Shown piece by piece: positions 17,527 through 18,972 of a DNA stretch of 29,190 nt. The stretch's first letter is position 1; every line of letters begins with the position of its first letter. A model generated the notes under the pieces. It did not search any database, was not told the DNA's origin, and was given only the letters and a program-made list of their open reading frames with translations. The stretch comes from Methylococcaceae bacterium. Its GTDB lineage: Bacteria; Pseudomonadota; Gammaproteobacteria; Methylococcales; Methylomonadaceae. Position numbers and translations under genes: made by a program. The DNA is taken from the NCBI GenBank assembly GCA_013138855.1, contig WTBX01000072.1, positions 1 through 29,190 on the forward strand, given 5' to 3'.

Positions 17527-18972
17527 ATGCCAAACGAAAACCCCATATACGATGTTATTGTTATAGGTGCAGGCCCCGCAGGCTATGTCGCCGCTATTAG
17601 AGCAGCACAACTGGGTTTAAAAGTCGCCTGTATAGACAACTGGAAAAATCAGAAAAACCAGCATAGCTTAGGCGGGACTTATATCAATGCAGGCAGCATC
17701 CCTTCAATGGCATTACTGGAATCCTCCAAAATTTATCATTTGTTAAAACATGATGTCGCTCAACATGGCATAGAAACAGGCGAGGTTTCATTAGACCTTA
17801 AACAAATGATTGCGCGTAAAAACCAAGTAGTTCGCACTTTAAGCGAGCAGATTAGAGACAGTTTTAATCATCATAAAATCGATTGCATCTATGGACGCGG
17901 TTGTTTATTAAATGCGACACAAGTTGACGTTGTTCCATTAGATAAAGCTAAACCGTACACGCTGGAAGCTAAAAATATTATTTTAGCCACAGGCTCTAAA
18001 CCTGTAGGTATGCCTTGTGCGGAAATTGATGATGAGTTTATTATCGACTCCAATACCACGCTGGACATGGATACCGTTCCTAAACGACTAGGGATTATCG
18101 GTGCAGGTATTATAGGGCTAGAGCTTGCAGGAATTTGGAATCGTTTAGGTTCTGAGGTGATTTTACTTGATGCACAAGAAAGTTTTTTAACCACGCCCGA
18201 TTTTCAAATCTCACGCGAAGCTTACAAAATATACACCAAGCAAGGTTTAGATTTACGCTTAGGGGCGAGAGTCATTTCTGCAAAAAAAGCCAACAAAAAA
18301 GTTATTGTTGAATATCAAGACCAAGAAGGCACCCATACTTTAAGGCTGGATAAACTCATTGTTGCCACAGGTAGGCGACCGAATACCGAACAACTTGCCG
18401 CAGCCGAAGCCAATTTACTTTTAAACGAAAGTGGTTTTGTTCATGTTGATGAAAACTGCTGCACCAATCTTCCCGCTGTTTATGCCATTGGTGATTTAAC
18501 CTTATTAGGGCCTATGCTGGCACATAAAGGCTTAGAAGAAGGGGTTTTTGTTGCCGAACAAATAGCCAACCAACACAATCCGATTAATTATGATGTCATT
18601 CCTAGCGTTATTTACACCGAGCCAGAAATCGCATGGGTAGGGCAAACAGAGCAAGCGTTAAAAGCAATGGGGGAAAACTACAAAGTTGGAATTTTTCCAT
18701 TAAGTGCGACAGGAAGAGGACAAGCCATTAACAAAACAGATGGCATGGTCAAAATTATCACGCAAGCAGAAAGTGATGTGATTTTAGGCGTGCATATCAT
18801 CGGCACGAATGCTTCCGAATTGATTGCAGAAGCGGTACTCGCAATGGAGTTTTCCGCCAGTAGTGAAGATTTAGCGCGAACTATTCATGCACACCCCAGT
18901 ATCTCAGAAGCCTTGCAGGGCGCAGCATTAAGCCTTGATAACCGTTCTATCCATATCACAACATTACAATAG
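17527..18972 (+). CDS. lpdA: Dihydrolipoamide dehydrogenase-like flavoprotein lacking the redox-active disulfide
   Basis: GAGPAGY FAD motif, GAGIIGLE NAD motif, ATGRRPNT, GPMLAHK and HAHPSISE. The CxxxxC motif reads TYINAGSIPSM. Confidence 0.9.
   Translation: MPNENPIYDVIVIGAGPAGYVAAIRAAQLGLKVACIDNWKNQKNQHSLGGTYINAGSIPSMALLESSKIYHLLKHDVAQHGIETGEVSLDLKQMIARKNQVVRTLSEQIRDSFNHHKIDCIYGRGCLLNATQVDVVPLDKAKPYTLEAKNIILATGSKPVGMPCAEIDDEFIIDSNTTLDMDTVPKRLGIIGAGIIGLELAGIWNRLGSEVILLDAQESFLTTPDFQISREAYKIYTKQGLDLRLGARVISAKKANKKVIVEYQDQEGTHTLRLDKLIVATGRRPNTEQLAAAEANLLLNESGFVHVDENCCTNLPAVYAIGDLTLLGPMLAHKGLEEGVFVAEQIANQHNPINYDVIPSVIYTEPEIAWVGQTEQALKAMGENYKVGIFPLSATGRGQAINKTDGMVKIITQAESDVILGVHIIGTNASELIAEAVLAMEFSASSEDLARTIHAHPSISEALQGAALSLDNRSIHITTLQ

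Follow-up and report, generated by a model that had tools for sequence, protein, structure and literature searches.

A sucAB-linked dihydrolipoyl dehydrogenase homologue of Methylococcales that lacks the redox-active disulfide: a possible repurposed pseudo-E3

In a clade of Methylococcales, the operon for 2-oxoglutarate dehydrogenase (ODH) encodes an E3 of its own that appears to be chemically disabled throughout the clade, including in the engineering strains Methylotuvimicrobium buryatense 5GB1 and M. alcaliphilum 20Z. The case described here comes from the window, that is, the whole stretch of 29,190 nucleotides that was analysed (contig WTBX01000072.1 of a Methylococcaceae bacterium), where the gene after sucAB encodes a full-length flavoprotein without the redox-active disulfide (hereafter the variant Lpd). 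The reading favoured here, held tentatively and at a little short of an even chance, is that this protein is a repurposed pseudo-E3 that does not reoxidise dihydrolipoamide and whose docking on SucB is inferred, while an intact LpdA does any real E3 work. The relevant features of the gene are the following.

17527..18972, plus strand: variant lpd, a 481-aa ORF without stops encoding an LpdG-derived flavoprotein without the redox-active disulfide
17566..17583, plus strand: FAD-binding GxGxxG (GAGPAG, aa 14-19), column conservation 0.98 in the variant clade vs 0.92 in the canonical set
17671..17709, plus strand: former disulfide motif, GGTYINAGSIPSM, aa 49-61, from the translation and the LpdG alignment
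18100..18123, plus strand: NAD-binding GxGxxGxE (GAGIIGLE, aa 192-199), conservation 0.85 in the variant clade vs 0.98 in the canonical set
18886..18909, plus strand: HAHPSISE, aa 454-461, with the catalytic His456-Glu461 dyad, intact in this strain by translation

Where a canonical E3 reads GGTCLNVGCIPSK, the product of this gene reads GGTYINAGSIPSM. Residue-by-residue alignment with Pseudomonas LpdG (1lpf/5u8u; E 3e-149) sets Tyr52 (TAT, 17680-17682) and Ser57 (AGC, 17695-17697) opposite the first and second redox cysteines, and Met61 (ATG, 17707-17709) opposite the lysine. An earlier interpretation made from the letters of the window alone (the sequence-only reading) had claimed these three replacements in a full-length ORF with FAD, NAD and His-Glu motifs intact, and translation, codons and alignment bear it out on each count. 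The electrons of dihydrolipoamide reach FAD solely via the E3 disulfide, and thus the variant Lpd should be unable to run the normal E3 reaction, a deduction that rests on established chemistry and not on an enzyme assay. The lysine of GCIPSK usually pairs with the glutamate of GxGxxGxE; this residue, Glu199, is present in the variant Lpd and kept in 35/37 members of the variant clade. Residue 215, the acidic position that serves the NAD ribose, is Glu in 30 and Asp in 7 of the 37. The conserved NAD and FAD sites are no less compatible with a working redox enzyme than with a scaffold, which counts against the favoured reading.

In other respects the protein resembles an E3. The AlphaFold model (pLDDT 80, pTM 0.80) has P. 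aeruginosa LpdG (5u8v) as its best fold match (TM 0.88, 51% identity), and the Pfam matches are Pyr_redox_2 and Pyr_redox_dim. The protein scores 474.3 bits with TIGR01350 (dihydrolipoyl dehydrogenase, EC 1.8.1.4) against a cut-off of 408.8, and it is because this cut-off is passed that clade members bear the name "dihydrolipoyl dehydrogenase" in public records. Annotation is affected accordingly, with all variant Lpd proteins so named by pipelines, as are genome-scale metabolic models and the engineering of TCA-cycle products, for which "sucAB-lpd" is currently taken as a complete complex. Full-text literature searches gave no paper on a cysteine-less Lpd in methanotrophs.

Tree and synteny identify the variant Lpd as a direct orthologue of the LpdG-type E3s (P. 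aeruginosa 5U8U/5U8V, P. putida 6AWA, P. fluorescens 1LPF and A. vinelandii 3LAD), to which it is 49-51% identical over the full length with a fold TM of 0.88, and on these grounds its gene is shown to descend from the LpdG-type E3 encoded after sucAB in gammaproteobacteria. Both share the FAD, NAD, central and interface domains, the position after sucB and, in this strain, the His-Glu dyad. Unlike LpdG, however, the variant Lpd has YxxxxS for CxxxxC and Met for the flavin-side Lys, along with further clade-specific changes at G108, N116, G201, V203, V281 and R327, and the catalytic dyad, which is invariant in canonical LpdG, is not so in the variant clade: His456 is found in 32/37 and Glu461 in 28/37 members, as opposed to 70/70 for both in the canonical set.

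The first Cys and the Lys are absent from 37/37 orthologues sampled across four Methylococcales families and from all of the best 120 database matches, which include Methylotuvimicrobium buryatense and M. alcaliphilum 20Z. In 70/70 orthologues linked to sucAB, taken from three further Methylococcales families and from other gammaproteobacteria, the canonical C, C and K are found. The variant clade comprises Methylobacter, Methylomonas, Methylovulum, Crenothrix, Methylotuvimicrobium, Methylicorpusculum and the marine genus of this genome. Among the 37, position 52 is Tyr in 25, His in seven and Phe in five; position 57 is Cys in 25, Ser in ten, and Asp and Gly in one each; and position 61 is Met in 15, Ile in nine, Leu in seven and Val in six. 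The tree requires a single loss of Cys1 and Lys61, and this reconstruction shows that in the ancestor of the clade the interchange Cys gave way to Tyr/Phe/His and the flavin-side Lys to Met/Ile/Leu/Val, with the second Cys lost subsequently in the marine genus of this genome. Later independent losses, placed on the tree within the variant clade only, number at least five for Cys2, at least three for His456 and at least five for Glu461, a pattern to be expected after the disappearance of the disulfide chemistry. The variant does not track methanotrophy strictly: such a link was considered and rejected, as families f3, f9 and f10 have pmoA-type genes together with canonical LpdG.

It is hardly credible that the variant Lpd is a functionless decaying remnant or that its substitutions are assembly errors. 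Such an explanation can draw on the missing catalytic residues and on two genomes: congener G001, in which the gene is spread over three frames with sucA and sucB intact, and G022, a complete genome of the same family, which has lost the gene and keeps sucA-sucB with the E3-binding domain. The G001 frameshifts are probably homopolymer errors, since both fall in poly-A (A8-type) runs of a 5-contig assembly, and this copy was rejected as a pseudogene. The absence from G022 means that the gene is dispensable there. Two further genomes that seemed to lack it, G006 and G011, were set aside because their sucA matches stop at contig ends. As to error, a Logan assembly of a marine-sediment run spans 17385-19000 with zero differences from the window at the three codons; since the run is likely to be the source sample itself, the agreement is independent at the level of assembly but not of sampling. 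What rules out sequencing error is that these substitutions are conserved in relatives.

Decay is further opposed by the omega of variant lpd, which is 0.094 over 36 sequences; in the Methylococcales loci where sucA stands at 0.072 and sucB at 0.091, it is 0.088. These values are rough because dS is saturated at such divergences; the closeness of the omega of variant lpd to those of sucA and sucB nevertheless indicates that the gene is not decaying, and, as estimated from these alignments, it remains under purifying selection. Full-length ORFs are found in more than 150 sequences, including every copy of the sampled set, and for the M. buryatense orthologue 18 or more RNA-seq runs, drawn from at least five studies, have contigs that contain it complete. 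Relative to the canonical set, divergence is lower in the NAD (ratio 0.94), central (0.73) and interface (0.86) domains and higher in the FAD/active-site domain (1.14). The alignment across Methylococcales with dN/dS that the sequence-only reading had proposed thus finds the variant fixed in the clade, at an omega to be compared with 0.061 for canonical LpdG and 0.064 for LpdA. Sequencing error at the codons and relaxed selection confined to one strain, which that reading had named as grounds for abandoning or reducing it, are both excluded, and its inference of a pseudoenzyme or repurposed flavoprotein gains support from the single clade-wide loss and the purifying selection.

The genome encodes a second Lpd, as had been suggested by way of complementation. 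This protein (L001, 487 aa) is a fully canonical LpdA of the E. coli type (GGVCLNVGCIPSK, HAHPTLAE), is 37% identical to the variant Lpd and is unlinked to sucAB. Intact LpdA is present in this genome and in 40/41 relatives, and in 35/35 of the high-quality genomes. In E. coli a single Lpd is common to pyruvate dehydrogenase (PDH) and ODH, and by analogy LpdA is likely to be the real E3 of this genome.

Type I methanotrophs have for decades been described as lacking ODH activity, and ever since genomes became available it has been a puzzle that they carry and express the genes (PMC517821, PMC5023229, PMC6373157); the low or absent activity that the sequence-only reading had invoked is documented (PMC5023229, PMC5802761, PMC517821). 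In extracts of M. alcaliphilum 20ZR, ODH was undetectable while PDH reached 120-290 nmol/min/mg (PMC5802761). The Lpd of this strain carries the variant motif GGTYINAGCVSSM. ODH activity was unmeasurable in M. capsulatus too, which has only sucA and sucB (PMC517821). The M. capsulatus-type genomes compared here likewise contain sucAB and no LpdG-type gene, and low ODH without variant lpd makes a pseudo-E3 unnecessary as an explanation of low activity. For M. buryatense, which carries the variant gene, two papers cite 13C tracing that is reported to show the oxidative TCA cycle in operation (PMC6373157, PMC6456754), a finding that speaks against the pseudo-E3 reading. Succinate builds up in an sdh mutant of Methylomonas DH-1 (PMC6373157). 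The methanotroph ODH puzzle can now be put in concrete terms, namely which Lpd serves ODH and whether the variant Lpd inhibits it, regulates it or does something else.

The latter two reports favour the possibility that the variant Lpd is a working ODH E3 that follows an unconventional route. The thiolate might, for example, attack flavin C4a directly, or members with Cys2 might work with that one cysteine alone. Its proponents could add that the His-Glu dyad is retained in most members (102/120 of the best database matches and 28/37 of those sampled), that Cys2 is present in 25/37 and that sucA and sucB are under selection. Such a route is nonetheless very improbable. The marine genus of this genome is without either cysteine; Cys2, His and Glu have each been lost repeatedly while the gene stays; ODH is undetectable beside active PDH in M. 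alcaliphilum 20ZR; and intact LpdA is available to account for any flux. In E. coli Lpd, moreover, mutants with a single Cys have essentially no activity with lipoamide.

The remainder of the operon is in order, with the features listed below.

13032..15857, plus strand: sucA, 2-oxoglutarate dehydrogenase E1o, 941 aa (NF006914, 1343.8 bits vs cut-off 764)
15860..17125, plus strand: sucB, E2o succinyltransferase, 421 aa (NF004309, 586.9 bits vs cut-off 449)
15986-15988, plus strand: SucB lipoyl Lys43 (in ETDKV), motif present
16181-16282, plus strand: SucB E3-binding domain (PSBD), aa 108-141, intact and conserved across the clade
17030-17050, plus strand: SucB catalytic DHRLVDG, motif present
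18847..18882, plus strand: helix aa 441-452 of the variant Lpd (EFSASSEDLART), predicted contact with the SucB E3-binding domain, from interface residues of the complex prediction

SucA matches the Pfam families E1_dh, Transket_pyr and OxoGdeHyase_C and has an intact ThDP motif (GDx..NN, starting at aa 357), and SucB matches Biotin_lipoyl, E3_binding and 2-oxoacid_dh. The scores and motifs agree with the earlier claim that SucA, the lipoyl-Lys and the E3-binding domain of SucB are intact. Genomes of the variant clade, and G022, were compared for a shift in that domain; it looks the same there as in canonical genomes, which makes the comparison uninformative. The presence of sucC could not decide whether SucAB is the sole route to succinyl-CoA, as congeners carry sucC-family genes.

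Evidence for a tie to SucB comes from the retained gene order, from conservation and from prediction. The predicted complex of the variant Lpd with the SucB E3-binding domain scores 0.60 against 0.01 for the best control and is rated as weak support. The mark applied is reached by 51/78 solved complexes and 2/108 mismatched pairs; scores of 0.60 or below account for only 5/78 solved complexes but for all four passing mismatches (of 180), and the score may be a memory of solved E3-PSBD complexes. In the variant clade the putative contact helix shows 84-100% conservation at E441, F442, S443, A444, S445, E447, D448, R451 and T452. The same helix also sits at the dimer interface beside the His-Glu dyad. 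Taken as a set, the interface residues have a conservation of 0.80 vs an average of 0.72, which is only suggestive because P is ~0.10 relative to random residue sets.

If the variant Lpd is a repurposed pseudo-E3, it would bind FAD and NAD(H) as a dimer and would have kept its docking to the SucB E3-binding domain, a step that is inferred in the absence of binding data. Once docked, it would compete with intact LpdA or modulate the access of LpdA to SucB, LpdA would provide whatever true E3 activity the ODH complex has, and the expected net outcome would be a low or conditional flux at the 2-oxoglutarate step. It is also conceivable, though unlikely, that the protein is a dedicated regulatory subunit of ODH that occupies the SucB docking sites, senses redox state via NAD(H)/FAD and gates the TCA cycle. 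Were this true, it would account in molecular terms for the presence and expression of sucAB in Methylomonadaceae without ODH activity in standard assays.

The main rival, possible if somewhat doubtful, is that the protein acts independently of SucB as a free NADH diaphorase or quinone reductase (or an NADH oxidase or transhydrogenase) and has merely inherited its gene position. A precedent exists in Irc15p of Saccharomyces cerevisiae, a paralogue of Lpd1p that lacks the Cys pair and has retained His-Glu. It is an FAD dimer that NADH can reduce; in vitro it acts as a reductase of ferricyanide, DCPIP and menadione but not of disulfides (PMC6296175). Conservation under selection of the FAD/NAD(H) motifs and of the acidic NAD-ribose residue, together with the retention of sucAB without variant lpd in G022, speaks for such a function. 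What weighs against it is that the order sucA-sucB-lpd is held across four families, in every Methylococcales locus with a long enough flank, with no other conserved partner; no gene 3' of variant lpd is common to different genera among the loci compared. The putative PSBD-contact helix is conserved as well, and the interchangeability of Tyr, Phe and His at position 52 argues against a new catalytic residue there.

Irc15p and the variant Lpd of this genome have both lost the two redox cysteines while keeping the His-Glu dyad. Irc15p, however, arose independently in fungi after a whole-genome duplication, is microtubule-associated and is neither encoded with an E2 nor known to bind one, whereas variant lpd occupies the E3 slot of the operon itself. 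On the favoured reading, it offers a bacterial case of a pseudoenzyme retained in the operon of its complex of origin. Two other members of the flavoprotein disulfide reductase family have likewise lost part of the disulfide centre: M. tuberculosis LpdA (Rv3303c), an NAD(P)H quinone reductase without one Cys and the His-Glu dyad, and STH, from which the catalytic His and one or more Cys are missing, both of which perform non-disulfide chemistry (PMC6296175). The variant Lpd differs from them in having lost Cys1 and Lys with His-Glu mostly kept, and it falls under the NCBIfam cut-offs for both, a further point against the free diaphorase (316.1 bits vs 465 for STH, NF003585; 257.6 bits vs 479 for the Mtb LpdA-type NAD(P)H-quinone dehydrogenase, NF005883).

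One observation on this strain speaks against a tie to SucB, namely the repeat-filled spacer between sucB and variant lpd.

17126..17526, no strand: sucB-lpd spacer, 401 bp, packed with repeat elements (inverted-repeat search)
17165-17275: palindromic 111-bp element, with 21-nt perfect arms at 17171-17191 and 17248-17268
17368-17433: second hairpin element, an inverted repeat

An intrinsic-terminator-like site was looked for in the spacer and none was found. The corresponding spacer is ~8-60 nt in relatives and 38 nt in the related organism of run X2. The 111-bp element has 48 matches in the genome (E <= 1e-5), the window's own copy included; six more copies are full-length and match at 96% identity or above. 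Contig depth rises to as much as 206 over the spacer, compared with 14 over the variant lpd gene.

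The third gene of the sucA-sucB-lpd cluster encodes a dihydrolipoyl dehydrogenase (E3) of the LpdG type from which the redox disulfide has been lost; gene and protein are called here the variant lpd and variant Lpd. The features at this locus are as follows.

13032-15857, forward strand: sucA, intact, ThDP motif present, upstream of the variant lpd
15860-17125, forward strand: sucB, intact; lipoyl lysine, E3-binding domain and catalytic DHRLVDG motif all present
17126-17526: sucB-lpd spacer, 401 bp, its extra length being repeat DNA
17165-17275: 111-bp palindromic MITE/REP-like element with 21-nt perfect arms
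17368-17433: second hairpin element, inside the same spacer
17527-18972, forward strand: variant lpd, 481 residues, free of stops

Codons 52, 57 and 61 are TAT, AGC and ATG, and GGTYINAGSIPSM of the variant protein aligns with GGTCLNVGCIPSK of LpdG-type E3. The sequence-only reading, which had described a full-length E3 frame with Tyr52, Ser57 and Met61, is confirmed in full, coordinates included, and its statement that SucA and both the lipoyl lysine and E3-binding domain of SucB are intact holds as well. Pfam assigns the protein to the class-I pyridine-nucleotide disulfide oxidoreductases and matches a dimerisation domain in it. It passes the NCBIfam equivalog for lipoamide dehydrogenase (474 bits vs. 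a cut-off of 408.8) and falls under the cut-off of all remaining NCBIfam families, among them the models for STH (316 vs. 465) and the Mtb-type NAD(P)H-quinone dehydrogenase (258 vs. 479). The solved structures closest to it come from LpdG-type E3s of Pseudomonas and Azotobacter (E about 1e-149), and a structure predicted with 23 orthologues (pLDDT 80, pTM 0.80) matches P. aeruginosa LpdG with a TM of 0.88 at 51% identity.

The loss is widespread in Methylococcales. When the motif was read in each orthologue from 40 relatives of the window's genome, every match in the window's own family carried Tyr, Phe or His where the first cysteine should stand and a hydrophobic residue where the lysine should, three other families of the order showed the same two replacements, and the canonical motif was limited to three families (f3, f9, and f10). 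This comparison, which had been proposed beforehand, rules out a strain-specific accident. In a collection of 5.8 billion proteins, the first cysteine and the lysine are absent from all 120 best matches (68-83% identity), which belong to Methylobacter, Methylicorpusculum and Methylococcales MAGs; every named entry among them is called 'dihydrolipoyl dehydrogenase.' Among 80 named loci drawn from species-representative genomes, the variant occupies 16/16 Methylococcales loci (Methylobacter, Methylovulum, Crenothrix, Methylomonas, and MAGs), and GGTCLNxGCIPSK is found in 64/64 loci of other gammaproteobacteria, with the sucA-sucB-lpd order kept wherever the flank extends far enough. One orthologue, identified by exact look-up, is Methylotuvimicrobium buryatense WP_017839334, which shares a 90% cluster and the motif GGTYINAGCVSSM with M. 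alcaliphilum 20Z CCE23265. In a congener assembled in five contigs (G001; L119, G001:C2, 6738-8176), the gene is spread over three frames beside intact sucA and sucB, both shifts lying in poly-A runs; these are likely long-read homopolymer errors, though real slippage-prone sites are possible.

With the LpdA paralogue as root, a maximum-likelihood tree of 75 orthologues places the 37 variant proteins in a single group (SH-aLRT 87) nested within the Methylococcales LpdG clade, with canonical family f3 as its sister. The first cysteine and Lys61 each change once on this tree, while the second cysteine changes at least five times, His456 at least three and Glu461 at least five, all inside the variant clade. 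Thus, the interchange thiol and the lysine were lost first and together, and the remaining catalytic residues have been wearing away separately in individual lineages ever since; in the window's genus, the second cysteine has gone as well. All five positions are 100% conserved across 70 canonical orthologues, and few other canonically invariant positions have changed clade-wide (G108, N116, G201, V203, V281, and R327). In some variant members (L030, L034, L027, L028, and L029, from genomes G029, G031, G038, G014, and G023), the catalytic His is Phe, Thr or Arg and/or the Glu is Lys, Arg or Ser. Lys replaces Glu461 at the dyad in 14 of the 120 best database matches, and four Methylobacter loci (L040, L041, L043, and L044) read HAHPTLAK or HAHPTLSK. 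These dyad losses constitute a graded natural series for probing what role the dyad retains.

Simple decay or error is a most unlikely account of the gene. Sequencing errors at the three codons would have refuted the original observation, but Logan contigs from the marine-sediment run containing the window match 17385-19000 with all three unchanged, and the substitutions recur in relatives. Maximum-likelihood codon-model estimates (GY+F3X4) gave omega values of 0.094 for the variant clade (36 sequences) and 0.061 for canonical LpdG (70 sequences); at the same Methylococcales loci, they were 0.072 for sucA, 0.091 for sucB and 0.088 for the variant lpd, and the Methylococcales LpdA paralogue gave 0.064. 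These values are rough because synonymous sites are saturated at such depths, but judged by them, with the variant close to sucB, neutral decay is excluded. The FAD GxGxxG and NAD GxGxxGxE motifs, reported as kept in the window, are conserved clade-wide, as are the NAD-ribose acidic residue and the GD motif. Divergence of the variant relative to the canonical set is 1.14 in the FAD/active-site domain, 0.94 in the NAD, 0.73 in the central and 0.86 in the interface domain, the first being the only one relatively more diverged. Contigs assembled from at least 18 RNA-seq runs, spread over at least five studies, contain the full-length M. buryatense orthologue. Taken together, selection, cofactor-site conservation and expression indicate that the variant Lpd is produced and has a required role in which FAD, NAD(H) and the dimer take part.

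An intact E3 is available elsewhere. The second lpd that the sequence-only reading suggested seeking is a canonical E. coli-type LpdA on contig C136 of the window's genome (GGVCLNVGCIPSK and HAHPTLAE), which also encodes a third, more distant family member. LpdA occurs in 40/41 relatives and 35/35 high-quality genomes, with a canonical motif in every case, and in M. buryatense it lies directly 3' of aceF. In the window's fragmented, 84% complete assembly, aceE is truncated at the end of a contig (L154, G000:C288) and neither aceF nor an AceF E3-binding domain was found. The flanks of LpdA there (L001) hold an ORF without assigned family upstream and a SEC-C-motif-like ORF downstream, without aceF; pmoA is likewise unassembled, and congeners have it.

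Organisms of the variant clade carry a long-standing puzzle concerning 2-oxoglutarate dehydrogenase (ODH). In gammaproteobacterial methanotrophs, the genes are present and the activity 'has never been demonstrated' (PMC5023229); extracts of M. alcaliphilum 20ZR gave pyruvate dehydrogenase at 120-290 nmol/min/mg and no detectable ODH (PMC5802761, Table 3), and M. capsulatus, with sucA and sucB only, likewise lacks activity (PMC517821). The classical association of type I methanotrophs with low or absent ODH is borne out by these sources. Methylomonas DH-1 expresses the ODH complex at a high level (PMC6373157). A disabled operon E3 offers one concrete contributor to the missing activity. It cannot be the whole story, because M. 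capsulatus lacks the activity as well and because 13C tracing, as far as the papers citing it relate, reports that M. buryatense runs the TCA cycle oxidatively and has several routes leading from 2-oxoglutarate (PMC6373157; PMC6456754). Genes of the pmoA type also occur in families with canonical LpdG, and the variant is not coextensive with methanotrophy.

By established E3 chemistry, normal dihydrolipoamide oxidation is impossible without the disulfide, and an unconventional E3 mechanism is quite unlikely. Given that the disulfide is gone, that the gene is under selection and retains both its sucAB linkage and its cofactor sites, and that an intact LpdA is at hand, the preferred inference, held tentatively, is that the variant Lpd may be a pseudo-E3 still docked on SucB, where it would limit or condition ODH, with any true E3 work done by LpdA. 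Continued docking is likely but unproven. The sucA-sucB-lpd order is kept over four families, in whose loci no other conserved neighbor was found, and the E3-binding domain of SucB is conserved, arginines included. When the complex of the variant dimer and SucB residues 100-150 was predicted, it scored 0.60, and the highest of three controls scored 0.01; the tool rates this result as 'weak support.' The mark is reached by 51/78 solved complexes and 2/108 mismatches; scores of 0.60 or less comprise just 5/78 solved complexes, yet all 4 passing mismatches of 180, and the pass may reflect memory of solved E3 complexes with this domain. Within the variant clade, the helix predicted to make the contact (aa 441-452, EFSASSEDLART) shows 84-100% conservation, but the interface residues taken together did not significantly exceed random sets of residues in conservation (P about 0.10).

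The main rival, a free NADH diaphorase or quinone reductase, is rather doubtful but remains a real possibility. Yeast Irc15p has lost the same cysteines, keeps His-Glu and has the in vitro profile of such an enzyme (PMC6296175). In the complete 5.0-Mb genome of a member of the same family (G022; L150, G022:C1:2028000-2040000), sucA and sucB with its E3-binding domain are followed by a metallo-beta-lactamase-fold gene, and the variant lpd is absent genome-wide. This resembles a naturally occurring pseudo-E3 deletion and counts against continued docking, whereas the conserved gene order and the lack of another conserved neighbor speak against a free enzyme. At the sucA locus of a 2.1-Mb genome from the same family (G024; L151, G024:C15:14000-25500), neither sucB nor the variant lpd adjoins; a class-I fumarate hydratase gene lies nearby. 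Like the variant Lpd, Irc15p, Mtb LpdA and STH are disulfide-less members of the superfamily, so proteins of this kind were known before. The novelty lies in a large bacterial clade that has such a protein in the sucAB operon's own E3 slot, and a full-text literature search found no paper describing it.

The sucB-lpd spacer is 401 bp in the window; in relatives it measures roughly 8-60 bp, and a related organism from run X2 has one of 38 nt. The 111-bp element has 48 genome matches, the window's own copy counted, and six further full-length copies are at least 96% identical; contig depth is high over these repeats, and a simple scan found no terminator-like site in the spacer.

Elsewhere in the window, a 338-aa ORF (23874-24890) has no Pfam match, and a 679-aa fused TRAP-type permease with a DctM domain adjoins an AdeT1/2-family solute-binding protein (20221-23582, reverse strand). 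Directly downstream of the variant lpd, a 181-aa ORF (19255-19800) matches Nt_Gln_amidase (PF09764, E 3e-40), a family known mainly from the N-degron pathway of eukaryotes; the ORF is not conserved at that place in other genera. At 5705-7731, 5 kb upstream of sucA, lie a class I/II, dapC-like aminotransferase and tetrahydrodipicolinate N-succinyltransferase (dapD), a pair implying an anabolic demand for succinyl-CoA in this organism.
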